Made by a program: the position numbers and the translations under genes. Positions 1 through 50,500 of a DNA stretch of 64,000 bases are shown here, piece by piece (the first letter of the stretch is position 1; the number at the start of each line of letters is the position of its first letter). Location: assembly GCF_964355755.1 (NCBI RefSeq), contig NC_092675.1, positions 10,845,812-10,909,811 on the forward strand, in the 5' to 3' direction. This DNA is from Antedon mediterranea. Its lineage: Eukaryota; Animalia; Echinodermata. The notes under the pieces were generated by a model that was given only the letters and a program-made list of their open reading frames with translations, was not told the DNA's origin and did no database searches.

Positions 1-371
1 ACGGCCGGCCTTACTGACAACGAAGTTGTGGTATGTCAACAACAGAGTATCGCGTTTCATTCAATGTGACCCAAAAATCTAGGTCTGTATTAATTACGTT
101 CTTCTCTTTCTGCAGTCCCTTTGAGCGATCGATCGTTTTGATACTATATTTAGAATTAGTCAGTGGTAAATTAAATTCAACCGGTTGCAGTGTCTTGAAA
201 TTAGCTTTAGACTGGGCAGGAGGCTTTTAGGCAGCGCGGGACCGCCTGGCTCCGCCCTGCACAATTACATCCCTGCAGTGGGATCCTGAATAAATTTCTA
301 TAAATAGGTTCATCCAGGTAAAGCTAGGTATGAGTCACAGAAAGTACATTTATTTTGAATCCAATACTTAC

Positions 372-3300
372 AACACCACTATGCGCCAATACAAACGGGA
401 GAGCATAAGCTGACACCACTATTCCTGTTGTAAGGAAAAGACATATTTCATGTAGTGCATTGCTAGGCCCACCAGAACCATAATCAGATTCAGTAAGGCG
501 TTGAGATATCCACATTGGCATTGGAGATAGAAGGTAGAATACCAATACAAACATTGGCCACCATCTGTAATAGAAAAATCAATTTTATAAATCAACAGAA
601 ATGTGACAGAAAAGTAATAATTATACATAAAAACTGTGACTAGGATCATGCATTATGTTATAAGTATTTTACCCACTCTTCATAATGACTGCTCCCATCC
701 AAATCTCTAATTAAACAATCCCTCTAAATTAAATGACAACTTTACTGGTAACCATATTTTGACAACGTATTAGACGTGTACATGATATCAGAACAATTGC
801 GAAATTGTTCTGATTTTTCAATGCACACACGCTGTACAGCCATCGTTATAAATGTCTCTCTTGTGCATAAGAAAACCTACCCGATGAGTTTTCACTGTTG
901 TTAACATGTAAGTAGAAGCTATTATATAATGTCACTTCAATTGCTAATGTTTCGGTTTACAAGTCGCACCTGTGTATAAGACGCACCCATATGGATACTG
1001 AAATTTAGTATTTTATATGTAGTCGATGTACAAGACGCACTTATTTCTAGGCCAAAATTTAAATATTTTACAAATAAACCAATGGTTTTTTAATATTAAA
1101 ACTATTCATTTTACTATAATAGTATTATTTGCCTTTATTACATCGTAGTCAGTCTCTACTTCAAGTGAACGTTCCAAAAAAGGGAAATCCCCACATTTCT
1201 TCAGTTACGATGCACTGTGTGGTGGGCTAGCCTATGTCTATTTAAGTTACTTAAATTGCAAATTATTTAAATAATATATACCTTGTTATTGTATGTACAG
1301 TATAACCATTATATAAAATCAATCCAAATGATGCTCATTTTCTAGGGCCAATAATGAACCAGGAATATCATGTACGGTATATGAAAATCTTGCCTAGATT
1401 TCCATATGCATGCATACAAGGAGCACATGGTTAGTGTTCTCGCCTCATACAGACTAGCCTCTGTATGCATGCATATGGAAATAGGTCTTGCTTGGCCAGC
1501 ACTGTTGGCCATTTACATAATGAGATTTGGGGGAGCTTCTTGACATTTAACAACAAGCTCTTCTAGATGTCGCTTGGCATACAAACAATTGCCTACATAA
1601 TTATAAAAATATGTGATTGTTGACATAGAGATGTAATAAAATAAACCATGGTGATCAAGGGAAATAGTTATTCTACAATTAAAATGTGACACCACCGTAT
1701 TAATGGACTCTTCCATAAATGCGCGGATTGATAGTTTCATATTGTGATGTAATGCAGCCACTTTGACCGACCGCGTAAAAGGTAAACAAAGAAAAGAACC
1801 GTAACTTTTCAGAGAAAATACCAGGGGCCGGGCCGGATTTATCAAACTTGCTTAGCAAAAAAATCGTCTTAACTTTGCCTTAAATCCTTGATTTTGCCTA
1901 AGTCAGATTTATCAATATATCTAAGCAAACAAATTTGCTTAATTTTGTCTTAAATCTAAGACGAAAAACACCCTGCCTTAAGATGAAAAATTTCGTCTTA
2001 TCTCATTTCTGCAACAGAAACATTCTTTTTTGACAACGCGAGCGCGCTAGGCCGGAACATTGAACATTCGGAAAGGCTACGCTAGTGCGTTTTACGCTGT
2101 ACTACGGACGCTAAAATAATGATATCGATCTTCACAAAGATGGCCTAGAAATTGGACGAGCAAAACTAATATTTTCGGGATAGGTACGACCCAATTGACT
2201 AGCCTTTAGAAAACTGTATCGGCTGCCAAGGGTCGCTGTCATTGATAAAAATAAATAAATGTTGATTTGATTTAAGTTTAGAGCGAATGATTTTCGTATG
2301 TATTTCCGACTGTTGTGCTCTTTCTCTATTTCAAGTAATAAAAACAATAGTAGCCAGAATGCGCCCTCTCTTGTTGGGAGTGAAAATACGGAGATAAAAT
2401 GTTATAGCGCCGCCATCGCTAAGAGAAAAAAGCTAATACGCATGCGTAAGCAAGAATTTTTCGTCTTAAGACATAATTTGCTGCCCTCTAGAGTTTAATT
2501 TTGCGCATGTGCAAAGTAAAATTGACCTAAGACAATTTTTCTGCTAAGACATTGCTAAGACGGTTTGATAAATAAGATTAAGTTATTTGCTTAAGCACTT
2601 CTTAAATATTTCAGCTTAAGCAAAAATATAAGCAAATATTGATAAATGCCAACCCGGGTCTTTCCCAAATTTGTATTAATGGATTCTTCTAAATATGGAA
2701 AGAAAAATAATTCAGCAACAAGAATAAGTCAGGCTACGCAGATAGCTATTGTTCGTATGTTACCGCTCTTTACCAGCTAGGCCTACAAAACTTCCGAAAC
2801 AAGCTACTTAGGTAGTGCACTGTTTTTCTCTTTTTATAATAATTAACAAGAAATGACCTGATTTAATGTTTTTAAAGTTATATACAGTATATATGCAGTG
2901 GCGGATCTAGGGAGGGTGAATAGCAGTGGCGTATCCAGTAGGGGGCCGGGGGCCCGGGCCCCCCTGATTTCGTTTCCGTCGGCACATCATCGCGGCCGTC
3001 GCCAAACAAAGGTGCCGGGGAAAAAAATAAACTATATTTATTCTGACATTAATTGAACTGTAAACATAATTCTTTTGAGTGTTTGTTTATTTACATATCA
3101 TATCATCATTGATCCCTTCAGATCAACGATTTTTTATTTTCATTACATCTAACGAAACACGTAAAAAATGTGTAGCACGTACGTACGGCCGTACGCGGTA
3201 GATTGTTTACTCAAAAGTCTTTGACCTTACCCTAAACCTTGTTTTTGCATGCAGTTGAGCCTCTCATGACCTGGGATTTGTATGTCTTCCTAAAAGTACG

Positions 3301-6300
3301 CTAAGAGATTATATAGTTCCACATGCCATGTGCTTTTTTGTCCTAAGATATATTTATTATAAGTGCCAAAAACCCGGTTTTTTTTCTCGATATGAGGCCT
3401 TTATTATTCAAAATTTTTAAAGAAAAAGCACATATACCATAACAAATATCCATGTATTTCATTTTTGGAACAGAATATTCCGTGAGGCTCAACTACAAAA
3501 CCACCATTTTATGATATGATATGATGTAATCGTAAGCCAATCAAAGCTGAGCTTTCTCACGATTGGCATTGCTCACGGTTGAATGATTTAGGATTCTAGC
3601 TGATTTGATTGGTGGATGCGAATCACCCGCAGCGGAATGTTTTCTCTCGCGCGTGTACCATGAATCTCTCTCTGATCGTTACTACACAAAGTTAGAGCAA
3701 TGAATGTCCGAATTCCGTTAAGTAAACAACTTTATATATTTTATAAGCATTTAATAAAATGTTTTATTGATATTTCCAATGGTGATATATAAAATAAATT
3801 ACTAAAAAACGTAATTATATGTAATTATTTTAACCAAAAAGGATAATGTTGGTTTGGTTTTAATTTTGCATCGTTATCCCATATAAGACAATATGACTAT
3901 GTAATCCTAGAACATATATTGATCAGAGACGTCGTATATGTACAGATAATGACACCAATTTTGTCGGCAAATTGGCAATTCCCGCCCCCCCCCCCCCCCA
4001 ACTTAAAAAAAAAAGAAAAGAAAAAAAAAAGATGCAACATACCCGCGATCGACGCACCCGTTTTTTTTTTTTTTTTATCAAGAAGGGTAGGCCTAGAGCT
4101 AAGGTTAGCATTAGTTGTGTAAATAGGCCTACATAGTGAAAGAGGAGCTAAGAGTTTTTTTAATTAAAATTACTATTTATGAATTCAAGAGTTTAAAAAT
4201 CTTCGGAAAATACCCACAACTGAGTTTTTCAAAAACACACACACTCTCCTCCTACTACCAGCGTCACGTTTTCTAGCTCGCGCCTCGTGTGAATGCTGCT
4301 GACGTCATCAATCTCCAAAAATACACCATTTTACCATATTCCATTTCAGTTAATTACCGCCTTGGTCCTCCGTGTGTGCAAGCTTGGTATATTTACACCC
4401 CTGAGTGTAGTGTAATAACTTTTTTCTCGCGTTACAGTACAACTTCTATAAAATTGTTTTACTGTACACATAAATCTGTGGACATACTGTATATTTAAGC
4501 TCAGACTTATTCTTGATTGAATATGGGTACCTATAATGTAATTAACTGCATGTTGCCAAATTTTATCTGCAGAGAAACTATGTGGAGTTGGCAGATATTT
4601 TGTGGATAGTACAGTACCCTAAATGACCTAAATGGAGGCGAACTGTTAGTAATAACCACTAAATTTGATGCACGTTAATGAATAAGTCCAAGAAAATAAC
4701 TGAAGTTGGAAAGTAAACATCAAAATGTAGCTGAACGTGTTCTCAAATTTGGTAGTTCACATGAGGTCATAGGATATAAGTTAATGACAGTGGACATTTA
4801 AAACTCCCTAATAATAATTAATAATACCATTTTATGGCATACTTACGATCCAAAAGCTTGTAGAGCACATGCTAACACCACCAGAAGAAGGCCAATTGAT
4901 GCAGAGAATGATAACAGGATTAAACTACAGAATAAGAAATGAAATTAGCTACAGTAACAAAACATTCTGCCAAGTATGTGGATTTGTCTTAATTGGAATA
5001 GACATTGTTTTGTTGCCATTTTAAATTTAAAAAGTATTGCCTATCCAATAATTGTGCAGTTTTTAAGTTTAAGTTTATGACAAATTAGCTAACTATTAGA
5101 GAAACAGAAAGCTGAAATTGGAAATGTATTTGGTACTTACCCTAAAAATGATCAGGAATTAAGCAAATTCAGAATATGAAAAAGAAAGCAAATTGCAATA
5201 TTAACAAAGCAAGGATAAAATTTTACAGTACCTGTATGTAAAGTATATACCAGACACCTGACGGGGACAGACATTCCTATGCAATTGATTGATACATTTT
5301 TTTGTGGTATATAAGTTTTTAAACTGTTAGAACTACCATAAATACCATTACCATAATTTATTTATACAGTATTGCCAATGTTGATTTAATATATAAAAAT
5401 AAATTACTAAAAAAAAAGTAATTTTATATACAATTATTATTGTTGGGAAGCCAGAAAGGGTTTACCTGCACCCTCTAGCAAACTATGTTAACAACATTTT
5501 TTGCTTCCTTATCAATACAAATCAATTTTTTACTGTACTATTACTACAGGGGTCAAAAGGTCAAAGTTAAGACTTGGCGTAACTTGGTAACTACTGTATT
5601 GGAATAGTTTTTGTGACAAACTACTCAGAAGACCCATATTTCTATTCACCCTTTCTCTGACCACTGGTTGAGAAATTGGCCATATGATCTGACCCTTAGA
5701 GAGCACACACTTTTCATATCTCAGAAATTGTTGGGTGGATATGGTCGTAATTGGTGTCAAAATACTCAGAAGATACTATTTCTATTCACTCTAATGGACA
5801 ACTTTTGCCAAAAACGACCGTAAAACTTTATTTTTGACCATTGGTCAAGAAAATGGCCGATATCAATATCTCAGCAACCACTAGTCAGGAAGTAATAATT
5901 TTTGCCTCAAATTACTCGCAAAGTATATATTGCCATATTAATGGTACTCTCGCACATAAAATTCATGATAAATGGCACCTCTAATTTGCAGGCTCTCTCA
6001 TATGTAGCATGCTACCAATGAGTAAAACGATCACACCTTTTCATACACGTAATTAAAGGACGATAACATTTTGTTGCCGATGATATCATTCACTCAGTAT
6101 TTTATTTTGATTGCGTTGCGTTCAAGTTTAATGCGAACATACGTAATATTAACATATCCTCCATGATGATCAATACACTATACTTCATAGCCACACATAC
6201 TGTAGGTATATACACTTTATGCTTACTGACTGCCAGTGATCTAAATAATAGGATGTCCTTTGTATGAATCATTCGTGCCCCAGCCAACGCACTGTATGAG

Positions 6301-9300
6301 TATGATACGCGCGTCAATGTCATGTTACATCCAGGGACCAAAATGCATTTATTTTTCAGGTGAAAATAGGCAATTCATTCGCAACTCTTAGAAATTTACA
6401 GATTGTCACTTTGTTGCACCAATAAGGTTTATCGCAAAGAGCTTGATTTGGCGAGGAACGTCATTTGACAATGCATGATGGGAAGGGTTTGGGAGAAAAT
6501 GTCACGACGCGTACATACAAACAACGAATCATGCACGTACATGGAGTAAGAATAAGAGGAGGCACAACACGGCCTAGCTATCCAGTTAATCCAATTAGTA
6601 TCACGCTGTGCGGTAGTGCTTAAGCATAGGGTAATAAACTTCCCATAACGATCCTTTGAAGAACCCTGTTTACCCGTGCAGCTCACTGCAGAGTCGGCTC
6701 TAATTACGTAACACCCTAATTAAGGAAGAAGCCGGGCATGACATCGGTGACAAGAAAAGTAAACAGAGGCTGCGCAGTAGTTTCTAATACATCATAGTGA
6801 AGCATGACCTTTGTGCAGTTGTTCATTGTTCTTTGAGATTTTTTCTCGAAAAAAACGTTTAAAAATCGAGTAAATTTTCACGGAGATATCGCAGTTTTTA
6901 TACCAGCTAACAAATTAATCATATTTTTTATCAAGCCATAGACCTATCATTTGGTAAATCGAAATTTTACCGTTTAAGCAACTTTTTAATTTACGAACCC
7001 TAGTGCATTTTGTAGCATATTAAAGACTCCAACTTATTTTAAAATCAAATTTTAGTGCACGCAAATGCGCGCATGAAAAAAATTATATAATTTGTTCTCA
7101 TGAATATTCAAAAATATACGTATATTACAATTCCAAAGACACAATTTCTTATTTTTATTACTGTATATGACATTTAATTTATGTTTCAGTCTATATTATG
7201 ACCGTTTAGCAAAACTAAAATTCTTCTATTTTAGTCTGATATTGTATAATTAAATTATTTATGATATTAATATCATAAAATATGATTTTTACGATCACAT
7301 AGTACTACTATGTGATCGTAAAAAATACTTAGAGTTCAGTGAAATTGTAGGACTTAAATTATATATCGTTTAACGATTTGTGGCTACACATAGGCCTACT
7401 ACATAGTAGGCCTCAGTTCGTAATATATTATTATTTAATAAAAAGCCTAAATAAGGATAATATTAATCCCATAATGATGGACATATTTAGTGCATACCGT
7501 AACCGGTAGGCCTAATAGGTTCAGGCATAGGCGCACCTATAGTAATAATAAACAATATCAATAATAATAGCAATAGGTTTTTTATGTAGGTCTATATTAA
7601 TATATTAATAATTGTAATAACGTTAGAAATAGTAGTAATATTTTATTAAAGAAGAAATTACATCAATTAGTCGTTATTATAAAATACGGTATTTAAAATG
7701 GTACTACGAGAATATTCGTTTAGTATCAACCCGTAACAACAACTACAAATTATATGTGTTGGTTAAAAATTCAATTACAAATATAGTCTATATGCTCTTT
7801 TGTAATTATAAGCCATTGTTTAAAAGGATTATGTACAGTTCGGTACATAGCGGTTAATCGTAAAATTAAAAAATCGGAATACGAACAATAGATCGCCAAC
7901 ATTATTCGTACCCTTTTGCTGTATTGCGTACGTCGATACACAGTACACGACTGACGCGGCTGTAAACTTCGCCTGGAAAGTAACTAGTATAGTACACATT
8001 CTGGTCCCAGGATGGAACATGATATCACACGTAAACCGCAATGGAGCATGGATTAAAGAATAGATCCATGAATGGAGCAGGCCCAATGTTAAACAATTCG
8101 TACAAAGGGGAACCGCCAGACAAGCGCGTACCTATTCATTGTATATTAGATCGCTGGCAATAATGCATGCATATAAAGTGCAATAGCCCTCCGCTCCAAC
8201 GTACTAAAAAAAATGGAACGTCGCGGTTTTTCTAGGCGCTGAAGTTATACGAAGTGAACGCGAATGATTTTTACTGTATTCCCCGACGAAAAGTACTCGC
8301 ATTTCCCAGACGGGGAAGAGGGGGGGGAGGGGGGAGATAGGCTCTCCGACGAGGGGATACATCCCCCGTAGCTCCCCGCTGGCACCACCACTGGTCCTTA
8401 TTAAACCCATTAATCCATCATTATTCATGATAAGTTGTCTGGAGAAATTACCAACATTTAGTACACAGTAAACCATATAAATATAATTCCTTTATTGGTG
8501 CCATATAAAACTCGATCGTATTATTAATTTATTAATAAAAGATATCCAGTAGAATAGCGCTGCTTTTTATAAAAATTAATAAACAAGGTCGGAATACAAG
8601 TTCAGTAGGTCTACAAACAGTATAGTACACCTTTCACGCTTGAACGCACATCGCCTAGCAAGAGTTATTGTGACGTCTAATACGCATGTGTACGAACACC
8701 AAACTTGACCGCGGGCAGTAAACATTGTAATCTTTGCTAATTGGGTTATGTAACAGCAGTGTTTAGCACCTATTAAATACTCATTACAAGCATAGCCTTA
8801 AGCATAGCCTTAAGGAAGCGGTAAACACGGTGAACTGACTGAACTATTCAAGTTGTGTCTCCTCTTATTCTTTACTCCATGTCCCAACCCTTCCCATCAT
8901 GCGTCGCGTACGACGTACAGTAGTACGCTATTCGCGATAAATCTCGAACCCTAGGCCTATGTTATGTATGGTCTGCAACAAAAAAATATTGTTGTACCTA
9001 CCCTTATACATAAGGCAAATTTGGCATGCCATATACGCGACCGATTTTGAAAACCGACCGATTCGAAACGCGACCGATTTCAAACGCGACCGGCGGAATG
9101 ATCTGTTTGTGTAACCCTAGCTAGCTAGGCCTAGGGCCTAGCTAGGCCGACTAGCCTAGCTAGACCACTCTCTGTTCCGAGTTTATTCTAGCCTAAATAA
9201 ATACGGATTTAGGCTAGGCCTAGGCCCAGATGAAATTCTTTATTCTGTATTTGGCGCCCTGTATTTATGCCTTAGACCTAGGCTAGTCGTTTAATCAATA

Positions 9301-9353
9301 AATCACGTAAAAAAAGCGCATAATTAACATTACTCACTCCGTAATCCAGCCAT
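372..9353 (-). CDS. LEPROT: Leptin receptor gene-related protein / Vps55 family (LEPROT/LEPROTL1-like), 3' partial
   Basis: Minus-strand exons with GT/AG ends: 9353-9338 (ATG GCT GGA TTA CGG A|gtgagt), 5141 (1 nt, G), 4924-4847 and 564-372. Spliced product [55 protein letters not shown]...[24 protein letters not shown] matches the Vps55/OB-RGRP signature. The last exon lies left of the window. LEPROT versus LEPROTL1 orthology cannot be resolved. Confidence 0.93.
1398..1482. repeat. 21-bp perfect inverted repeat (small hairpin/MITE remnant)
   Basis: atttccatatgcatgcataca (1398-1418) and its exact reverse complement (1462-1482). Confidence 0.85.
1830..2655. mobile_element. Non-autonomous DNA transposon (MITE-like), imperfect TIRs
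   Basis: Left gggccggatttatcaa...cttagca and right ...ttgataaatgccaaccc, with mirrored subterminal cttaag/ctaagac motifs. No clear TSD. Confidence 0.55.
2896..2970 (+). mobile_element. Two adjacent hAT-like transposon left ends
   Basis: CAGTGGCGGATCTAG at 2896 and CAGTGGCGTATCCAG plus a GC-rich ggggcccgggccccc at 2924, typical CAG-start MITE termini. Confidence 0.45.
5141..5141 (-). CDS. LEPROT: Putative single-nucleotide coding microexon of the LEPROT/VPS55 gene
   Basis: Minus strand reads ...ttgctttctttttcatattctgaatttgcttaattcctgatcatttttag|G|gtaagtacca. It supplies the base needed between a phase-1 donor and a phase-2 acceptor (A+G+T = Ser). Confidence 0.75.
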
Positions 9354-9559
9354 ATTTAGACCTCGACGATTGTATCCAATCCAATATCAATTGCAAATAG
9401 ACTAAAATAAAAAAATAAACGACCAATATTTCGGAATTCTGTATGGCGCGCCACCACTCGGCCTAGACCTAATAACTGTGCTTTTGATCATCGTCACCAC
9501 CCGGCCCTCAGTCGCATTTCAAATCGATCAGATTTTTAATTGCGTCGTATTTTGTATTT

Positions 9560-9960
9560 TACGAAGCCTCGTTGGGGACATATGTAAAAAAAAAAGCCTC
9601 CACAACTCGTACGTACGACTTAGATATCTCGTACGTACGCGTTATTATCACGTACCGTCGGACGTACGACTTATTATCTCGTACGTACGTGTTATTTTCT
9701 CGTACGTACGACTTATTATCTCGTAGGCCTACGTACGTGTTATTTTCTCGTACCGTACCTACGAGTTATTAGAGAGCTTTCGCTATCTCGGATCGGGAAC
9801 GAGAACCAGCATTAATCTCGTACTCGAGATCGAGAACAGGTAATTAATGCTGGTTCTCGTTCCCGATCCGAGATAGCGAAAGCTCTCTATTATCTCGTAC
9901 GTACGAGTTATTATCTCGTACGTACGAGATAATAACTCGTACGTACGCGTTATCTTGTAT
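9560..9960 (+). repeat. Interspersed element end with 21-bp tandem array (cgtacgtacgacttattatct)n
   Basis: Terminus tacgaagcctcgttggggacat followed by degenerate 21-mers. The same terminus and array occur inverted at 14186-14402. Confidence 0.8.
9771..9888. mobile_element. 118-bp MITE, 46-bp perfect TIRs, 3-bp TSD (ATT), PIF/Harbinger-like
   Basis: agagagctttcgctatctcggatcgggaacgagaaccagcattaat (9771-9816) and its exact reverse complement (9843-9888). It splits a 21-mer unit with ATT duplicated. Confidence 0.85.
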
Positions 9961-10232
9961 ACGTCACACGTGTAATTGAACCATGAACCTCGTGTGCGCA
10001 CATTGACATGTGGCCTGCTTGTTGACAACTTGATGAGCTAGACTGGCTCTAGTCTATAGTACTACTCTATCAAATGGGATGGCCAGTCTGTGTATTCAGG
10101 AGGAGTGTATATGTGGTTGACAAACCTGTTTTTTTTTTGCCACTGTTAAGTGTAAGCTGACAGCGAATGTGATGTGAGAGAAGTTATAGAGATTTTAAAC
10201 CAGGCGCAAGTTTGTCTAATTAATTACAACAG

Positions 10233-10529
10233 TTCCTGTTAAAAACAACCTAGAATTCTCCACCCCTCTAACCATAAAGTCATCTCATCTTGATTGTGAT
10301 TACAAGAAGACTATTGCTCAGGGCTCATTTGGAGAAGTATTCAAGAGAATGTACCAATATGAGCATGTTGCCGTAAAGAAAGTGAAGTTGAGAAAGGGCA
10401 AGCGTCCGAAGAAGCGGATTATAAGGGAGGCTCAAATAGACCAACAACTCGCACACAAGAAAATTGAAAAGTTCATTGGAATTTGCCTCTGGAGCATCAT
10501 TTATGTCTATCATTACTGAGTTTATGGAG
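10233..10529 (+). pseudogene. Protein kinase N-lobe fragment (subdomains I-V) with a frameshift
   Basis: Translates as ...IKSSHLDCDYKKTIAQGSFGEVFKRMYQYEHVAVKKVK...IIREAQIDQQLAHKKIEKFIGICL, then after a frameshift SIITEFME. Glycine loop, VAVK lysine, alphaC Glu and gatekeeper region are recognisable. No C-lobe follows. Confidence 0.75.
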
Positions 10530-10851: not shown

Positions 10852-12136
10852 CCTACTATGTCTAAGATTTTTGAGCGCATTGTGCATGATGGTTTGTCAT
10901 CACATGTTGCTAATGCTTTAAGTCCTAGGCAGCATGGTTTTGTCTCTGGGAGATCATGTCAAACCAACCTCGCACTGCTTCTTGCTACATCATACGATGC
11001 AATTAACAGCAAGAAGCAGTGCGATGTGATTTAGACTGATTTCTCTAAGGCTTTTGATTCCGTTTCCCATGATTTGCTTATTTTTAAACTTTCAAAATTT
11101 GGTTTATCCGGTTCACTGTTAAGTTGGTTTAAAAGCTATTTAACTAATAGACAACAGCGTGTTGTCATTGGGGGAGAGACATCTGATTGGCTCCCTGTGT
11201 TATCGGGCGTTCCGCAGGGCTCGATCCTGGGCCCGCTTTTGTTTAATTTATTTATCAACGATCTTCCTTTAAAATTTAATCATTCCGAGTCTCTTTTATT
11301 TGCTGAAGATCTGAAATTGTTTAAAGTGATTACCACTCCACAGGATGCTTTTTCACTTCAGGAGGATCTGGATAGTCTCGTGGAATGGACGGAGAAGTGG
11401 GGGATAAAACTTAATGCTAATAAATGCAAATATTTATCTATAACACTTAAAAAAAGGCCTGTGCTCTTCAATTATAATCTGAGTGGACATGATCTTGAGA
11501 TGGTTTATGTTTGGAAAGATTTAGGTATTTTTATTGATAGTAAATTAAATTTTTGTTCACATATTAATCATGTGTTGTCAAAAGCTAATAGAATGATGGG
11601 CTTAATATGGAGAAATTGTAGGTTTATGAACGACGGCAGGGCACTTTTATCTTTATACAAATCTATTATACGTCCTCACCTTGAATATTGTTCTGCAATT
11701 TTCAATTCAATTTCTCCATGTCAGGCCCGTCGAATCGACACTGTTCAACGGAAGTTTGTTCGATTCCTGTCTTATAACTGTGTTAATTTTGCCTTTTCCA
11801 TTGATTCTGTCAGCAATCGTCGAACGATATCTGATATGGTTTTTTTATATAATATTTTAAATTCTAAATATGACTGTTCATTAATTTCACTATTTAGTTT
11901 AAATGTTCCTGGTCGTACACGAAATAGACATTTATTGCATATTCCTTTTAGCCGTGTCGACTGTACTAAGAGGGGACTTTTTCATAGACTACCTTATACA
12001 TTTAATAATCTAAATAGCAATCATATCGATATTTTTAATGATAGACTTTGTTATTTTAAGAGGACGATGATGTGTTCACTTCTTGAACAGCCTGCATAAC
12101 CTGTTTTAATTGAAATTATTTATGGCATGCCAATCT

Positions 12137-14006: not shown

Positions 14007-14149
14007 AGCTTGGTTCCCACTAGAACGTAACGCAAGGATGTAAACGCAACGCAACCAATGACAAGCGGCAGTTCGGATAATCCATCGCTTGTGATTGGTC
14101 AATTCACTCACGTTGCGTTACGTGTTGCGTCTCTAGTGGGAACCAAGCA
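14007..14149. mobile_element. Tourist/PIF-Harbinger MITE with TTA TSD
   Basis: TIRs agcttggttcccactaga / tctagtgggaaccaagca, with TTA on both sides (14004-14006, 14150-14152). Confidence 0.85.
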
Positions 14150-14185
14150 TTAGCGGTTGTACACGTACGCACAAGAGTACAATAT

Positions 14186-14402
14186 AATAAGTCGTACGTA
14201 CGAGATAATAAGTCGTACGTACGAGATAATAAGTCGTACGTACGAGATAATAAGTCGTACGTACGAGATAATAACTCGTACGTACGAGATAATAAGTCGT
14301 ACGTACGAGATAATAAGTCGTACGTACGAGATAATAAGTCGTACGTACAAGACAGTGGTGGCAATTTTTTTTTAACGGATGTCCCTAATGGGGCTACGTA
14401 GT
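14186..14402 (-). repeat. 21-bp tandem array (about 8 units) plus element terminus
   Basis: (ataataagtcgtacgtacgag)n followed by atgtccctaatggggctacgta, the inverted copy of the 9560 terminus. Confidence 0.85.
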
Positions 14403-14529
14403 ATTTTGGCGCAATCGAATATGTTTATATGCCTATATATAAAACATCAGAAGCAATTGATTGACGATATAAAGAAATACTGGCACTCTGGGGCTAGATG
14501 TCTCTATTTCTCCAAATGGGATAGATCCT

Positions 14530-30956: not shown

Positions 30957-33900
30957 ATGTTCATGTCTGGAGCTAGAAATGCCAAGATTGTGGGCTTATG
31001 TGCTCTTGCTAACTTCATCAATGCTGCAGATCGTGTAATCATGCCTATAGCAGTTGTACCGATGAGTGAGGCTTTCAATTGGAATTTACAAGTGCAAGGA
31101 TGGCTATTGAGTGCATTTGCATGGGGCTATATAAGTAGCCAGGTATAAATTGATTTTTTAAAATATTATAGTGTCAAGATATTCTTGATTTCAATTCTGG
31201 ATTGTTTAGTTGATTTATTCAATAAAAATTGAAAAGCTGGATATATTTATCAGTTCCATGGTCTCTGTTAACAATACATGTTGGCTAAAGCTGAGCAGGC
31301 TGAATGGCAACTACAGTACTAGGCCTTACAGTAAAAATAGCTTGGAAATCACATCAAACAATTGCATAATTTTTTACTCAACAGACTATTATTATGTGAC
31401 ATTAAAATAGGGCATATTTAACAAAAACATTTAAAAAAATGTTTCAGGACACTATATCTTTAAGATGTTTATAGAGTGAAATATAGAGTTTGCCATTTTG
31501 TTTATCAACAGGTAATTGGAGGTAAAGCGGCACAAAAGTTTCGTGGTAAAACAGTTTTGCTAGTTGCAGTAACAGTTTGGTCAGCAGCAACCTTTTTAAC
31601 ACCGATTTGTGCAGAAATTTTTGGTCTTCTTATTTTATCTCGAGCTGTTTTAGGATTTGCTGAGGGATTTTGCCTACCCACCATTTTTCACATTTTTGCA
31701 AACAATATTCACGAAAATGAGCGATCAAGGGCTTTTGGTTGGTTAGTGGCTCTTGGATCCGTCGGTCAAATGTTAGCATCAATAGTAAGTAATAATACAT
31801 CATTTTCTGTGTAATAATTTTATGCTTGATGGAAATATCCTATATTTATAACATCTAAATAGATTCCTGTTATCTGATTGGACGATTGTGTGTCACATGA
31901 TAAAAGATAAAGTGCACTATTTTTATGCTTATGAACCTAGTGTTTTTATATTCAATTGGCATAAGACCGGACAGCGTAACCTCCCAACAACAACATATAG
32001 CTACTTTTAAATTTAGCAAACATGAATAAACGTTTTTGTCTTTGTGTTGTTGTATTATTTAGACATACTATATTGTTCTATGTTTGTCTATATAACAAAA
32101 AAATTAAGGGTTTGCGATCAACCTTTTTTTCATATCATAGATTTTCAACTATGACGGGTGGTTCAATAAGTGACTTTCGAGTCACTAACATTTGCGGCCT
32201 TCTCTATTCAAATTTGAATTGTTTAGTGTATTTGGACGTGCACAAACTAAATATGAATATATTGCAAAATGATCAAATCAGAGTACTTGCAAGAAAATGA
32301 TAAAATCAGTAATGACTAATATCAGGTAAAAATGACTATAAATCAGTAAAATCAGATGAAAATTACATTACATCGAGAGAACTGGAGATTGTTTTTAAAA
32401 TCATTGACGTCCAAGTCTACAAAGTACACTCTCAGTCAATAAAATTTAGTGGAAATTATTTGATGAATTAAACATTATTAATTTGTTTTTGTATAGATAT
32501 GTCCACATTTAAGTTGGCCTATGATGTTCTATACATTTGGAGCACTTGGTTTTATGTGGGTAGCGGTTTGGATTGTGTTTTATAAGGATGACTTTGTAAG
32601 TAATCAACAAGAGGACTTGATCCCACCAAAAGTAAGTTTTTTAAAGGTTAGTAATGATATTAGAGCCCCTCTACTCCGACCAGATTTGGAGTGAAAAAAA
32701 AAGTGTGAGAGGTTATGGGAATAGAGAGAGTATCGCGTTTCATGGCATGTGTCACTTGTCCTGTTCTTCTTTTCTTATATATCTCTAAGATACTTTTATA
32801 ATTCTCTTAATGTTGCACAGATTTTTGTTATTAAATGTCAGGAAAATTATTGTTCTATGAACAAAGAACACACAAATTTTAAAAATATAAATTGAAATTA
32901 TAGTGAAAGCTAGCTTATATTTTTATGCATAACAAATCTATGCACTTTTATTTGCCAAAAAAACTAACAAATATTGTTTGGCATAAGTGTTGAATATGAA
33001 TTTTTATAACACACCTGATTGTATTCTTACAATTTGATTGATCAATACGTCTAACGTCTAAATGTGATATCTGAAGGCCGGTGCACACTGAACAATTTAC
33101 CTGTGAAGCACCATGAGTCAAGTATCAAATTAAACCTGTAATTTTGTTGTGACTAAAGATTTCAGTGTGAATATCAAATTGTAGGCGTCGTTTTAATTAT
33201 CAACTTAAATGAGGTGAATTCGAAATTAGCGAAGGCTCCGTGCGTGAATTCACTATAGTGCTCCATGGGCAACCTTTTTGCGTTCGCTTGCAAATTTGTT
33301 TCAATTTGACCAATCAAATACCAAGGATGTGTGATGTCATCAGTCAGATGAATATTGAAAATGTGTTCAACATGGATGTAAACGATGTAAATTCACTGCA
33401 TTTGAATATAAAAATCAACTTTACCAGATCGAACTGGAACTATTGTTGTCAGGCAAAAATGATATGTGACGCTGAAACTTTGATCGCGATGGTCTTTTTC
33501 AAGCTTCACAAGACTCGCTTTGATTTTACGCTTAACACGTGTGATTGTTCAGTGTGCACCGCCCTTAATGGTAATAATTAACATGCTCTAGTGAGCTCTT
33601 TGTAAACATTTTAAGAATTTTTGCCGCGCAACATTGACTGTCGGGAAATAAACTTGTTGTGTGTACCGTTGTATAACTGTTCTACTCCGCTTCTAAAGTT
33701 TGAGCACTGCCTTTTTTAATGGGCTAGCTAGTTAACTCAATGTTTACAATGGATAAGTTAATATAATTATAATGAATGTTTTTTATTCATTGAATGGAGA
33801 GAATATTTCACTCGATGAAAAGTTCATGAAATATTCTTACCATCAAACTCATTCAATAATTGTATACTATATTACAATGATCACTCTAAACTAATGCTAC

Positions 33901-36335
33901 TTTTTCACCAGGTAGACACGAGAGCTACAGTTAGATGGACCAGTTATATCTCCCACCGTGCTCTATGGGCTATTTACATGGCACATTTTGCAATGAACTG
34001 GTCCAATTATGTAATAATGACGTGGTTACCAACATATTTACAGCGTGAATTAGGAGCAGACCCTAAGGACATCAGCTTAACTGCTTTACCTTATGTCATG
34101 AATTCATTTATAGGAGTTTGTGAGTACTAAAGAATTATTTCTTCTTGTCATGTGTTTAATGGCACAGGACATGGTGTATGTAACATAGGAAGACTGTTTT
34201 GAAATTGCTTTTTGTTCTTTATACCCTACATGATACATTGGATTCTGATAATGAAAAATATCAACATGCATGTCAAACTTTTGGAATTTTGCACTTAAAA
34301 ATTGGACAATAATGGTTCTCCCAAATTTCAATGTTTGGTACCTCTCTGAACCACTGCTGCAAATACTCATTCCAACGAAGGCAATCTAAAAACAGGGTGC
34401 TAAGCTCTAGATATCAAAAGGTTTATCTGTGGCTGCGACACGATCAGTTCTACGCCCCTTAACAGACACCATGCACCACAGAGAATATGTACATAGTACA
34501 GTACTGTTGGTATTTGTTGCAGCCAGACATAAGATCAAAGAACTGTTACAAGTTCTTATCTTGGCAAGGCAAGCTCAGTGCCCTGTTGTTAGATTGCCTT
34601 GTTCCTACCATACTACGAAAGAAACTCACTTAGCAACTATTTGTGCATTATTAATCTTGCTAGATCTGTTTACAACCAATGGGTGCAGTGAGTTGTGTCT
34701 AAAATAGACACACTTCATCGGCACTAGAAAATATATTGGACCAGACTGCACTGAGTCATACCTTCTCAGTAAAAATAATTTCTGGAGCATTATCATCATC
34801 TAGAATGATAATACAAGAGTATAGTATTTTGAAAAAAGTAGTTGATGTTAGTATTACTTGACCAAGTTGGACCTTAAATGTATGAAATGCTGACTAATAC
34901 TAACGCTAACTAACACTGACGTCAAAAACCTTATTATGGCAAGTTCAGATAAAGGTCTAAATGCTTCCAATGTTACACAATGTTCTGTTTTCAAGTTTTA
35001 CAGAAACGCTCTGCACAAAAATAGTAGAAAGAAATAATCCTTAAAATCTGCAGTGCAGATCAATAATGATAACAATAGGTGATACTTCAACAGAACCTAT
35101 AAAGATTCTGAATAATGATAGGTGATCTTTTACAATAAAAAAAAAAGAATAATTTGTACACGATCCCTGAAATCTACGATTAATCTTCTAACCATCCATA
35201 ATAATTATTGTTTTTCTTTAGTGGCAGGATACTATGCAGACTCTTTAATATCTAGGAAGCAGTGGACGGTACTCTCAGTTCGTCGTCTTATGACCAGTAT
35301 TGGCCTACTTGGTCCAGCTTTATTTATTCTTCTATTCTGTTATGTAGATAATATTGGTTTAGCTGTATGGTGAGTAGATACAAAATGCTAGAATACAAAA
35401 TGTAAACAAAATAAAGTTGTATTTATTTTCTTTCATTTGTTGTAATAATAAAATTGTGTTAATTTTTTTTTATAGTTTTGTGTCGATATCACTAGGTCTG
35501 TGTGCTTGTAATTCATCTGGTCACATCAGTAACCATGCTGATGTCGCACCAAGTCAAGCTGGTGTTACTTTTGCCGTTTCAAATACTTTGGTAAGATTTG
35601 AAAAATCAAGTTGTAATGATGTAATTCCCAAGTTGACAATTTTATTTGACTACATTATTTACCATGATGTCTGTATTTATCCATTTTGTGTAGGTATTTC
35701 CAGTACCCATTACTTTAAATAACATAAGCTGATCAACCCCACCCCTCTTCCCCATTTTTCAAATAATAGTATTTTTATACACCCCAAGTATTAAATAGTA
35801 ACCTCCTTAATGAGAGATTTAAAAAAAAATGTTGTTTCAACAGTACTTGTGGTAAGTAATTGACACAGGATGTTATACCCTTTTCACACCTGCCAGATGT
35901 AACAGTTTGTATTCAGGTTTGCATAGTGCGAAGAAAATTTTGTGGAAATCACACTAATGAGAGGCCTGTTTTTTTGTTTCAAGGTGTTACTGCATGTATT
36001 GTCCTAGTAATAAACTGAAAAATCATAGTAATCAAATAACGCACAACTATGCTTTATCCCAAAATTTCTCATGTATATGCGTATATGAAAACATGTAATA
36101 AATTGGGAGATCAAAAACTGGTTACAACTTGTAACAATTTATGCAAATGTAAAATGGTTATTTTTTTTTTTTCACTCATTAGGCTACAATTCCTGGTCTC
36201 ACAGCTGGACCGTTGACTGCTGCTATCGTTGAATACTCATCTACATGGTACCCTGTATTCATCACAGCATCAGGCGTTAATATTGTTGGTGCCCTCATTT
36301 ACTACAGTCAAAGTTCAGCCAGCCAAATTTTGTGA
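30957..36335 (+). CDS. SLC17/ACS-family MFS anion transporter, 405 aa, complete CDS
   Basis: Exons 30957-31142, 31512-31784, 32497-32631, 33912-34119, 35222-35369, 35476-35590 and 36183-36335, all GT-AG and phase-consistent. Motifs ADRVIMPI, SAFAWGYISSQVIGG, RAVLGFAEG, WPMMFY, WLPTYL, DVAPSQAG..FAVSNT. An acceptor at 30930 implies an upstream non-coding exon. Confidence 0.93.
33075..33565. mobile_element. Harbinger-like MITE in SLC17 intron 3
   Basis: TIRs aggccggtgcacactgaacaat / attgttcagtgtgcaccgccct, with TGA/TAA flanks. Confidence 0.7.
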
Positions 36336-44575: not shown

Positions 44576-47500
44576 ATGAAAACTTTCATCCTAGCTTTGT
44601 GTGTAGCGCTGGTATGCGGTAAGTTTGCATTTAACCTTTTTAATATTAGTTTCGTTTTATATTATACTTTAGTTCCTATTTGTAATTGTACAGCTTTTGC
44701 ATCATTTTAATTAGAAAAAATACTTGCCCCACTCTGTTCAAATGTAGTTTAAAACCTTCCCAGTACAAATTATGGTCATTTTCATATTCCATTACTCCCA
44801 AGTCACAACCACTGTGTATTCACATTACAATTCTGGTCATTACTCTACTACTCTCCTAGTACTTGAGTAGGCCTACTTTGCAAGCGGAGTTAGCAACCTT
44901 GGCAGCCCTCTGGTCAGGGTTTTAAGAAAGCCCTGTAAGCTCTGCATTTTAGAACAACTTAAAACATACAGTCTTCCATTAACTTTCCTTGGGAAATTGG
45001 TCACTAAATACAATTAAGTCCATCTAAATTTAACTTTAAAAAATCCAATGGGCAAATTGTAGCATAGAAAATATGGATCTAGCTAATGGGTTTTTAAATT
45101 TAACTGTTTGAGACTATGTAATCTAATATAAATGAATAAAGATTCAATAGGTCATATGCATTATGTATTATTAATTGATGACGAATTAAAATCTAGTTCA
45201 TATTTAGAGTTAACTTTTCTCTTGAATTCTTTGATTTTGTATTCTCAAATAATTATCTGTTATGAAATTTGTTCTCAGCTGAAACCATTTACTTGGAGCG
45301 CCAGCAGTCAAACGGTAAGTTTCTATAATCTGTTCAAGAAATTGTACTATAAGTTATTGCCTAAATCTCCATCAAGAATATTTGTATTACTTTTATTACA
45401 CACATCCGTCTTGTTGAAAATTAGGATATATTTGAATGCACATAAATTGAAAAAAATGGTAATCTAATTGTGATTATAATATCACTAATGAATACTTAAT
45501 CTGTTTTCTATAGAGTACATAACTCGTTTTGAGGCTGGTAAGAGCTACCTGTACAAATATGAAACGACAGTACTCTCTGGTGTCCCCCAGACTGGCAAAG
45601 AATTCCAGGGACACAAGATTAACACCTTTGTCAACATTACCTTTATGATTGAAGGTAACAACAAACGTGCTTTCCTACAGGTAATATTTTGTAACTTTTC
45701 TGCTTTAATAGTATTTTATTTAAAATTTTGACATAACTTGTTTTCCATTTATTCCACTTAAAACAATTAAACTTTATTTGTCACCAGTTGATAGAACCAG
45801 AACTCTTTGAGGTGAATGGAACTGTCTTCCCAACTGAATTCACCATCAATGAATCAAGCACATCAGAAAACTTAAGACAACAACTGTGTAATCCTGTTGA
45901 ATTCCACTATTCTATGGGAAATGTAAGTGAAATATTTAATTATTTAATAGCTATATTTAGTTCTTCTATAGCACCAAATTCCAAACAATTGGATCATTGC
46001 TCATGCCACTGTGAACTCAGATGTGTACACAACTACATGACACAGTGGCTGTATGTCAACTAGTATACCGGGGTGACCCCCTATTCTTCTGGAAAGATGT
46101 ATTAGGTTCTTTAAAGTGCACACAAACAATGTGTGTTAACTGGACTCTTTATAGTGCTTGTCTAAGAAGACTTGTTCCGCTACCACCAGAACCATTGAGC
46201 CATTGAGTAAGCCCCAAACCCTTTGCCGATGTTATTACTAGATTTTATTTTATTTTTTTATTTTATTTCAAAACATACCGTATCAGCGAGAAGTCATTTA
46301 TGTAATGCCTTATAATATAAAACAAAGCAAAAATACAAAATAAAAGTACCAAAAAGCACACATGCTTACCGTTCCATTTAACCACTCAGCCATTCACTCA
46401 CTATATTGATATAGATATAATTTATAGTTTCATTTCTGCTTTGACTAAAGCAAAAATCTGAATAAATAGATATGTTTAAAAAATGAGACAATGAACAATA
46501 ACATTCGGTTTGTGTTTTTAAGAAGGACTTGTGTCATCAAAACTATGTTATAGATTTGTTTGCAGAACTCAATAGCACTTCACAATTTCTAGTATACATA
46601 AAATAATTGTGCATAAATAATTCATTTTCTGAGCTCTTTCTGGAATAGAAGGATATACCCGGGGTATATACCTTGCTACAGTAGATCTACATCCAACTAA
46701 TATTATTAGTCAGGATAATACATCATATCTATTTATAGGTTTTCTTAATTCTTGTGTAGCCTTATATAAACTAAAGTAGGGTCACCAAATTATCTAATGA
46801 TGATAGGGGTAGACCAACAACCATGCCCTATTATCAGTGTTCAAACAACTAGTATCATAATAATCTTTTAATTTAAATAAACAAGTGTGATTATCTTGAT
46901 GGCCATATAAGAGAGTTTATGGCCTTGAGATTAATAGCTGTATTGTGATATTTTATCATGATATTACTAATAATGTCTATGTGTCAATTACTTGTTTTTA
47001 GTGATAATTTATGTTCTTTGACAGGCTTTGAAATAGCCTTAAACTATACCATTTTAATCTTTCTCGTTGAACAATTAAATTTCAATTTATATATCCTATA
47101 CTTACCGAATAAAACTTAAAAACCAGATTCCCACGAAAAAAGCCTTTAACAATACCTGCAACTGCTTAAAAAACATTAATTCTAAACCGCCGGTGATATA
47201 CTGAAATTTAATTTTCTGTCAAATTATAGAAACAGTGCTCATATTTGGAACATGATCTTATAATCACGTCGAGCATAAATATTCTGTTTTGCGGATTTTT
47301 TCTTCTGTTCTGTTTTCTTGGTCAATTTGTTTGGTTAGTTAAGCTATTTTCTGGTTTACTATTTTTTCCTCCACTTCACTAAGCACATTGAGACAAAATT
47401 GTTTGTGGAACGCACTATATAAATATATTAACATAAACAATTAACAATATAACAATGCATTGTTTAAAACTTTAATTGAGACAGTAAAAACAAACTACCA

Positions 47501-50500
47501 TTAAATCTGTACCACAAGTACAATAATTACTACTTTTTATTTTATATTGTTGTATCTTGGAAGATCAGTATATTCTATATAAAACTAAATCGATCATTAT
47601 TTTTATTATTAGGTTACAGAGGTTATTGCTCCAACAAATGAATCTGATTGGATGATGAACTTCAAGAAGGGTATCTTGAACATGTTTATTCTTCGCTTGG
47701 AAGATTCTGAAGATTCAACTGTGTTTTCTCGATTTGAGGTAAGCAGTGTCAAGTATATGCAGCAGAAACAAGATATTCCATTATCACCCTAGATACCACA
47801 TCGTTTTTTGGCCAAGCCTTTTAAGATCTATTACATGAATCAAATACATGATTATTTGTTTTTGTCTTAATAATCAGTAAAATTAAAGAATTTGACATTA
47901 GTAGGTTTGTGGTACGTACACCATGTGCTTGAAATAAATTAAGGTCGCAAATGTCTCAACGTTTCAGTTGTTAACATGTATTTGTACAGTAAACCTTTAA
48001 ACAATAGGAGAATTAAACATATATTGAATTTGTTTGACAGGAAGGTATCTCTGGTATTTGTGACACCATGTACCAGATTGAGATGAGACGCAACATTGAT
48101 GATATCTCTGTGATGAACATCACCAAGGTACGCGACTTTACCAACTGCACCTACTCACCAATGAAGGTTGAGACTCGTGCCCAAACCAAAGAATGCATTG
48201 CTTGTGAAGATACCAAGGTAATTTATTTCATATTTTAAACAAACCAGTTCTTTAGAACTATGATTATTTGTGAGTATTTGCACCCAGCCACCTTAAAACC
48301 TATGGTGATCGAGCTTTCGCAGTTGCAGCTCCTAAACTGTGGAACAATCTTCCTGATCCTATTAAAAATGCATCCTCTATCATTCAAAACACTCTTAAAA
48401 ACCCATATTTTTTCTTTGTAATTACCTCCACCAAGGAGGTTATGTTTTCACCCCTGTATGGTTTGTGTGTGTGTCTGTGAACAGCCTGGAGGCCACAGTT
48501 TTTATCCGATTCTCACCAAATTTGGCCACAATGATCTATGCCTCAAAAGCTCGGACGAGTTTGAGGAGAAAAGGTTATAGGTCAAGGTCACAACTAACAA
48601 AAAACTGTTTTACTGCATTACTGCATAGAGACAACAGTTTTTATCCGATTCTCACCAAACTTAGCCACAATGATCAATGACTCATCATATAATTGTGGTT
48701 AAATGTTGAAGGGTCAGGGTCAAAGATCAAGGTCCACAAAAAACAAAACAAAAAACAAAAAAAAATATAATAAAAAAAAAAACTTCAGTGGGACTTGAAC
48801 CAGCGATCTAAACTGTGAGAGGCTGGATACATAACCATTACACCAAACTCTCATCCACAACTTAGTAGTGTGCAGTTAGCCTATTTACACTTAGACCTAA
48901 TAAAAAAATATATATATATATATTTTCCGGGGACATTTTATGTAGGGGAATTTTACAGTAGACGGATGTTTGTACTCTCGGAGTACACTCTAGTTTCTTT
49001 CTGTTTTTTCTCTTAGCGCTTGGGGACAATCTTTTGATTGTATAAGCGCTATATAAATTGAACAACATTACATTACATTTGAACAAACTGACCTCTAGAG
49101 GGCTAATTTCAATATATGTATTTGAAAGAAATGTTCATTTCAAATTTATGAAAATAAATGAGGCATTTTAATATTAGATAAGGGTTTTCTTAATGCTAAA
49201 AAAACAAGTACCGTAATAAAAGTTTATACAGAGTTTAAAACAAATAAATAAAATAGGTAAAAGTATTTAAAGAAAAACATAAAAATAGCATGTGGTACTA
49301 CACAGGAGACTACTTTCTTTTCTGAATTGTTAAATATGTAACTGTAACTTATTCCTGTGTGGTTAAATTTTATTTAGACTACTTCACTGAAATCGATGGC
49401 TACCTTCAAATACAATGTTACTGGATATCGCAACAACTTCTTGATTGAGTCAGTTACTGCTGAAGGTCTTTACGTCTTCTATCCATATTCAATTGAAGGT
49501 GGATCTGCTAGGACTCTTGTCAAGTAAGTTACTTATTTACAGGCCTGTCAATGAAGAGTAGCTAAAGGCAGTTTAACTGAAAGAAAACTGAAAATTTGTA
49601 TTAGGCTCTCTATGCAAGAATCATCTGTGTAGCACTTTATGAACAAATTCACACCAGGAGTACTACTCTTTGCAAATACACTCAAACTATGAGGAGTACT
49701 ACTCTTTTAGAATACACTAACACCAAGAGTACTACTCTTTTAGAATGCACTCACACCAAGAATACAACTCTTTGCAAATACACTCACACCAAGAGTACTA
49801 CTCTTTTAGAATACACTCACACCTAGAGTATTACTCTTTTAAATACACTCACACCAAAAGTACTACTCTTTTTAAATACACTCATACCAAGAGTACTACT
49901 CTTTTAGAATGCCCTCACACCAAGAATACCACTCTTTGCAAATACACTCACACCAAGTGTACTACTCTTTTAGAATACACTCACACCTAGAGTATTACTC
50001 TTTTAAATACACTCACACCAAAAGTACTACTCTTTTTAAATACACTCACACCAAGAGTACTATTCTTTTTAAATACACTCACACCAAAAGTGCTACTCTT
50101 TTTAAATACACTCACACCAAAAGTACTACTCTTTTAAATACACTCACACCAAGAGTACTACTCTTTTTAATTACACTCACACCAAGAGTACTACTCTTTT
50201 TAAATACACTCACACCAAGAGTACTACTCTTTTTAAATACACTCACACCAAGAGTACTCTTTTTAAATACACTCACACCAAAAGTACTACTCTTTTTAAA
50301 TACACTCACACCAAGAGTACTACTCTTTTTAAATACACTCACACCAAGAGTACTACTCTTTTTAAATACACTCACACCAAGAGTACTCTTTTTAAATACA
50401 CTCACACCAAAAGTACTACTCTTTTTAAATACACTCACACCATTAGTACTACTCTTTAAAATCACACCAGGAATATTACTCCTTTAGGAGTCCTTAGGAC

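Follow-up and report, generated by a model that had tools for sequence, protein, structure and literature searches.

Here we report that a single G at position 5141 on the minus strand of a 64,000-nt stretch of the Antedon mediterranea genome (hereafter the window) is, with a probability of about 0.93, a real one-base exon of the LEPROT/VPS55 gene, which is surrounded by two ordinary GT-AG introns and supplies the middle base of codon 6. We found canonical splice sites on both sides of this base, a reading frame that needs it, an mRNA junction that contains it, and an equal layout in other invertebrates. The exon looks constitutive, since no exon-skipped form occurs among the three contig records of sample X1, a type of evidence from which rare forms drop out. 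Such a natural and essential one-base nuclear exon in animals, supported by mRNA and present in one deuterostome as well as in six or more other groups of invertebrates, would be a limiting case for the pairing of splice sites over long introns. It would also be an easily testable system, since this base can be C, A or G and success is reported by the reading frame.

Gene structure and the mRNA junction

The gene is encoded on the minus strand, and its last exon falls past the low end of the window. The boundaries of intron 1a given below are those of the one-base exon model, and the adenosines within the pyrimidine-rich zone are candidates.

9338..9353, minus strand, exon 1 of LEPROT/VPS55, coding part (16 nt, from the ATG to the first base of codon 6, ending in phase 1, donor GTGAGT)
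5142..9337, minus strand, intron 1a (4196 nt, GTGAGT...TTTTAG)
5144..5231, minus strand, AG-free pyrimidine-rich zone 5' of the one-base exon (88 nt)
5152, 5159 and 5201, minus strand, candidate branch-like YTRAY adenosines in the 88-nt zone
5141, minus strand, one-base exon G (middle base of codon 6, A-G-T, Ser)
4925..5140, minus strand, intron 1b (216 nt, GTAAGT...CTGTAG)
4847..4924, minus strand, exon 2, following the one-base exon (78 nt, phase 2, opening with the third base of codon 6)
565..4846, minus strand, intron 2 (removed in the spliced X1 contig)
372..564, minus strand, exon 3 (193 nt, Pfam Vps55)

Exon 3 matches the Pfam family Vps55 (PF04133) with an E value of 1.5e-18 and 67.2 bits against a cut-off of 24.6, which places the gene in this family, and is 100% identical to the Antedon mediterranea RefSeq protein XP_071952435.1. 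Exon 2 encodes the first predicted membrane helix and matches positions 1-22 of the Vps55 profile at an E value of 1.9e-4, below the curated cut-off. The placement of exon 1 is based on a loose end of the spliced contig described below and on its agreement with the RefSeq N-terminus, and that of the one-base exon on the G in the mRNA together with the layout of 20 out of 24 related loci.

An earlier note on this DNA had pointed out that exon 1 ends in phase 1 and the next clear exon begins in phase 2, and that a candidate single-base exon lies between them. The sequence agrees on both points: the stretch TAG-G-GTAAGT carries a canonical AG and GT around a single base and leaves introns of workable length (4196 and 216 nt). 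When exons 1 and 2 are joined directly, the translation runs MAGLRI and stops at codon 7, and the first Met after this stop is residue 36, beyond the first predicted helix. With the G at 5141 included, the frame is restored and the product reads MAGLRSLILLSF.

The mature junction CGGA-G-TTTAATC predicted by that note was read in a spliced contig of sample X1 (137 nt, depth 336), which aligns to 4847-4926 and whose two loose ends correspond to exon 1 and exon 3; its sequence, CGG-A-G-TTTAATC, passes from exon 1 through the G to exon 2 and on to exon 3. X1 comes from a different sample and study than X2-X5, and its RNA nature is a guess from the record, the contig itself being spliced. The RefSeq protein begins with MAGLRSLILL, without Asp, in agreement with the contig. 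The base is therefore both present in the mature mRNA and required for the frame. Just 5' of the ATG, at window positions 9354-9365, the same contig departs from the window by approximately one substitution and one missing base near its end, which may represent an allele or a contig error.

An intronic X1 contig with a depth of 6.9 covers 4918-5143 and so spans intron 1b; its letters all agree with the window, apart from a deletion of 3 nt at 5005. As it shows no letter change, there is no extra base at the acceptor in that sample. It opens with the genomic AG-G-GT instead of exon 1 followed by G, and is thus not a splicing intermediate; neither intermediates nor lariats of LEPROT/VPS55 occur among the three X1 contig records. 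The depth of the spliced and intronic contigs stands at about 48 to 1, contig depth being a poor measure. DNA contigs of X2, X4 and X5 span both 4924 and 5141 with no listed difference at either position, and an X3 contig equals the window over 9272-9570 with 0 differences, X2-X5 being possibly the source of the assembly. A second haplotype was also observed, with the 3-nt deletion at 5005 in intron 1b and a 5-nt insertion plus substitutions at 5222-5227, on the distal margin of the AG-free zone; its splice sites are the same.

Taken alone, the motif YAG-N-GTRAGT occurs in the 64-kb window about as often as chance predicts, twice against 1.51 expected, and 49 of 100 shuffles reached two. For the 4413-nt distance between exons 1 and 2 the expectation is 0.038 occurrences, and in a Markov simulation that also requires a pyrimidine tract matching the one observed (14 of 20) it drops to 0.0009 per intron. 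Five AG-(1-30 nt)-GTRAG candidates occur in this intron, and only the one at 5141 has a length of 1 nt; the earlier note had named a different intervening exon as a refuting outcome, and no other one-base candidate is present there. From 300 to 9400 the minus strand contains only four GTRAGT hexamers, and these are the donors of this gene (9337, 5140, 4846 and 371).

Related loci in invertebrates

The earlier note had proposed a search of orthologous introns for a conserved AG-N-GT. We compared the best 80 of 98 loci from one metagenome scan with an animal alignment, a set that is biased towards animals; 12 of them have no match to exon 2 and one is cut inside it. An acceptor lies exactly 5' of the third base of codon 6 in 28 loci, which were reduced to 24 by removal of the near-duplicates L062, L074, L076 and L078. 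Among these 24 non-redundant phase-2 loci, 20 carry AG-N-GTRAG upstream (one of them with GCAAG), compared with 4 on the opposite strand and 2.65 expected in shuffles; the loci are not independent, 7 of the 20 belonging to one clade, so that the p value given below is inflated, and in L043, L049 and L058 the site was chosen by hand between two candidates. The site is absent from the remaining 4 loci within the 234-968 nt of upstream sequence that was searched, where exon 1 is not in view. Together with the spliced X1 contig, this comparison supports the reading of 5141 as a one-base exon and extends it, since the exon is, judging from sequence, common to many invertebrates, a point beyond the earlier note.

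Of the 20 positive loci, 13 have exon 1 in view, ending in phase 1 and measuring 16 nt (25 nt in one locus), and in these 13 the conserved AG-N-GT falls at the same codon. Joining of exon 1, the single base and exon 2 gives an Ala codon (G-C-N) in 11 cases, Glu in one and Gly in one. The single base itself is C in 17 of the 20 loci, A in 2 and G in 1. Spliced close relatives keep the C (L016 beside L057, and L011 beside L014), and the Logan protein P0011, with Ala at position 6, is 96% identical to L053 and, in the tree, unchanged relative to L058 and L077. The positive loci were grouped by the named proteins nearest to them and by a weak tree of 72 rows and 85 columns, in which groups are resolved and their branching order is not. 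They comprise one rotifer-like, one insect-like, one crustacean-like and one unplaced arthropod-like group, two lophotrochozoan-like groups and several that are mite-like. In a rotifer-like locus (L071, position 159) the one-base exon is followed by a GC donor (GCAAGT), and its two introns measure 54 and 55 nt. The C-bearing orthologue L067 is likewise compact, its introns measuring 110 and 58 nt.

Four further loci, three crustacean-like (L035, L047, L063) and one nematode-like (L036), have a single phase-1 intron with the next exon opening with the C, the layout expected if the downstream intron had been lost. A phase-1 pattern is also found in a set of read-through protein models that end in Ala, which we take to be vertebrate proteins. 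In the models of Anneissia, Apostichopus, Candidula and Branchiostoma, Leu7 is preceded by Arg or Ser, an indirect sign that agrees with a phase-2 acceptor. Overall, deviations at codon 6 or close to it affect 18 of 23 named invertebrate gene models, whose N-terminus is missing, padded or shifted, and the one-base exon would explain this standing annotation error. Three sea cucumber proteins (P0007, P0004 and P0009) have Gly at codon 6, and hence also a G as its middle base; the change from C to G may be common to echinoderms. LEPROT/VPS55 loci were also sought in viral contigs and prokaryote genomes, and none was found there; the loci obtained include none from a plant, fungus or protist.

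In five cnidarian-like contigs (L001 at 1-67, L002 at 24-195, L003, L005 and L006), an intron stands just 5' of the C of codon 6 and no later intron follows; the AG-free zones extend over at least 64 nt in L001 and at least 111 nt in L002 and L003. It is possible that these contigs are splicing intermediates with intron 1a retained, or genes that have lost intron 1b. In the gene model of the coral Desmophyllum (P0159), exon 1 is followed directly by the next exon, so that codon 6 lacks its middle base and the frame is broken. The model contains two other frameshifts; it gives only a hint that corals need the one-base exon.

From this patchy and unrooted distribution, the one-base exon is likely to be ancestral in bilaterians and to have been lost in some lineages through loss of the downstream intron.

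Splice-site features, order of splicing and alternative readings

Counting the window, GTAAGT follows the single base in 18 of 21 sites, compared with 0 of 13 exon-1 donors. The AG-free zone before the one-base exon has a median length of 81 nt, and that of the acceptor which follows has one of 31 nt (20 pairs; the Wilcoxon p of 1.2e-4 is inflated by kinship). Pyrimidines make up 0.56 of the sequence adjoining the AG of the one-base exon and 0.58-0.63 at -30 to -60, in comparison with 0.66 and 0.46-0.49, respectively, at 12 control acceptors. In 16 of 20 sites a YTRAY lies at -50 or beyond, yet this motif is frequent at control acceptors too, and no branch-point position shared across the loci stands out. 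An alignment of the AG-free zones revealed no common motif other than the splice sites.

One base would be too small to hold two splicing complexes side by side, and its recognition is probably shifted into the introns. The near-invariant GTAAGT donor would serve on one side, and on the other the long AG-free zone, which likely houses a distant branch point and pyrimidine tract comparable to those of human MPC1; the distant branch point would separate the two complexes. The introns are likely to be removed stepwise, one and then the other. If the short downstream intron goes first, the base would come to stand at the head of exon 2, and the longer intron 1a would be removed last. On indirect hints, we somewhat favour this order: the cnidarian-like contigs and P0159 together may suggest early removal of the downstream intron and a slow upstream intron, as in plants. 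As a counterpoint, P0159 has its two further frameshifts, and the cnidarian-like species may merely have lost intron 1b.

The opposite order, which yields an equal product, has appreciable though lesser odds. Exon 1 would first join the G and thereby rebuild a better donor, as in recursive splicing; in the window this step converts the donor context AGG/GTAAGT to GAG/GTAAGT, and transcription reaches the upstream intron first. The rebuilt donor is not the conserved feature, however, since exon 1 joining in the C-bearing loci gives AGC/GTAAGT or TGC/GTAAGT with no improvement, and the cnidarian-like contigs and a mutant of MPC1 favour removal of the downstream intron first.

It is unlikely, in our estimate, that the exon is real but acts as a regulated switch, with skipping or retention of intron 1a lowering the gene in some tissues. 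The earlier note had suggested that skipping would switch the gene off, and the predicted stop at codon 7 gives this idea its basis; it is not supported, as a skipped form is missing from the three X1 records and the spliced contig far exceeds the intronic one, by the poor measure of contig depth. Plants form a second isoform by retention of the upstream intron (PMC8831610), and the five cnidarian-like contigs retain an intron 5' of the C and none downstream. Long AG-free zones and UGC motifs are reported as marks of neurally regulated fly microexons (PMC8797185), and the window has three TGC in the 60 nt upstream of the one-base exon. Of the features that accompany tissue-specific inclusion in neural eMIC/SRRM4 microexons, the long AG-free zone is present here, UGC is variable, with TGC lacking upstream in 5 of 21 sites, and the weak donor is absent, the donor being perfect in the window and weak in regulated fly exons.

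Far less probable is a single 4.4-kb intron with non-canonical ends, in which the G would belong to the donor at its start or the acceptor at its end, with 5141 as a bystander. The earlier note had warned that the G is easily misassigned, and rightly so: three single-intron alignments (TG..AG, GT..TA and AG..GT) fit the mRNA without a mismatch, the base being G, and the RefSeq model yields the correct protein through a junction that is not visible. Because the G can also be obtained from such ends, the mature mRNA does not fix its origin, and the comparison decides. A base that is C in 17 of 20 related loci and A in 2 cannot derive from GT or AG; moreover, the site recurs in 20 of 24 loci against the 2.65 expected, and one as good as that in the window is expected 0.0009 times per intron. 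The weakest alternatives, which we regard as barely credible, are use of the weaker donor at 9333, which would keep the frame and give MAGLRSDLILL but is excluded as the main form by the lack of the extra Asp, an outcome the earlier note had listed as refuting, in both the spliced contig and the RefSeq protein, and a junction base missing from the assembly, against which contigs of two samples equal the window at the acceptor and at 5141, and the X3 contig matches it throughout its aligned range. RNA editing by insertion of a G was set aside on general grounds.

Known one-base exons and neighbouring features

One-base spliceosomal exons are in print for Arabidopsis APC11 (PMC4674806), plant VPS55 (PMC8831610) and Fusarium CYP621A (PMC12940212). 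The plant VPS55 case, which the earlier note had named as a point to verify, is real: the exon of cluster 2 (Yu et al. 2022, PMC8831610) sits within the first 13 residues, was confirmed by RT-PCR in plants, and spans from Zygnema to flowering plants (PMC8831610, PMC11096116). Like the exon at 5141, it belongs to this gene family, lies near the N-terminus, has a GTRAGT donor and is missed by annotation, with loss of the N-terminus. The two are likened by family and N-terminal location, not by codon or base, and the exon described here is from an animal and follows a 4.2-kb upstream intron. The routes of loss also differ, plant VPS55 paralogues showing upstream intron retention and animal lineages seemingly downstream intron loss.

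In Arabidopsis APC11 (Guo and Liu 2015, PMC4674806), a constitutive single base likewise keeps the frame between canonical introns, in another gene and with proof by base substitution, whereas our case is made by comparison. Fusarium CYP621A (Nelson and Syed 2026, PMC12940212) shares the AG-G-GT, the mismatch from phase 1 to phase 2, and an argument from orthologues and mature reads. It is fungal, has a total intron of 139 nt, is confined to one genus and has G throughout, hence lacking the argument from C.

The 4-nt microexon of human MPC1 (PMC9929638) is also constitutive and frame-breaking, lies between long animal introns and has a distant pyrimidine region. Its branch points were mapped at about -68 and -64, whereas those in the window are candidates, and its natural length is 4 nt; shortened to 1 nt, it was still spliced in HeLa cells, and when its acceptor was mutated the downstream intron was nonetheless removed (PMC9929638). 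The authors report that their examination of the human genome yielded no exon with a natural length of 1 nt. Stwintrons (PMC5587772) and recursive splice sites resemble the site at 5141 in that an acceptor adjoins a donor and the intron is removed stepwise. A ratchet point is a zero-length exon, with AG directly followed by GT and no base left in the mRNA, whereas one coding base is kept here; in a stwintron, an internal intron lies within the donor or acceptor of the external one, or overlaps it by one G (PMC5587772), and the two introns here are complete and one base apart. The single-base exon of placozoan mitochondrial cox1 (PMC5436844) occurs in an animal, but is mitochondrial and flanked by group I introns, and is thus not spliceosomal. 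MicroExonator sets aside exons shorter than 3 nt unfiltered. Among the literature matches listed, with subscription papers outside the scope, none describes a one-base nuclear exon or a VPS55 microexon in animals.

We consider it a reasonable proposition, slightly better than an even bet, that one and the same coding base at codon 6 of VPS55 already formed a separate exon in the last common ancestor of plants, fungi and animals and has remained one since then, with piecemeal loss in vertebrates, a nematode and some crustaceans, and with the retained upstream intron as a shared control point. If the plant exon lies at the same codon, the exon would be a marker of very old gene structure, and if the shared origin is true, two introns one base apart would have survived for more than 1 billion years. 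From introns in this arrangement, an apparent sliding of introns by 1 nt could also arise in a simple way.

Several other features were observed in the window. A minus-strand open frame of 99 aa at 10220-10519, approximately 900 nt upstream of the LEPROT start, resembles by eye the start of a protein kinase domain. On the plus strand, a reverse-transcriptase fragment of a LINE-like element lies at 11035-12099 (RVT_1, E value 6.7e-21), exons of a major-facilitator transporter (MFS_1) at 31464-35722, and exons of a vitellogenin or large lipid-transfer protein gene (Vitellogenin_N, Vit_open_b-sht) at 45737-58423. Short tandem repeats at 9600-9770, just upstream of the LEPROT start, and at 14081-14424 have a common CGTACG-rich unit, and a third repeat at 49876-50487 has a unit unlike theirs.
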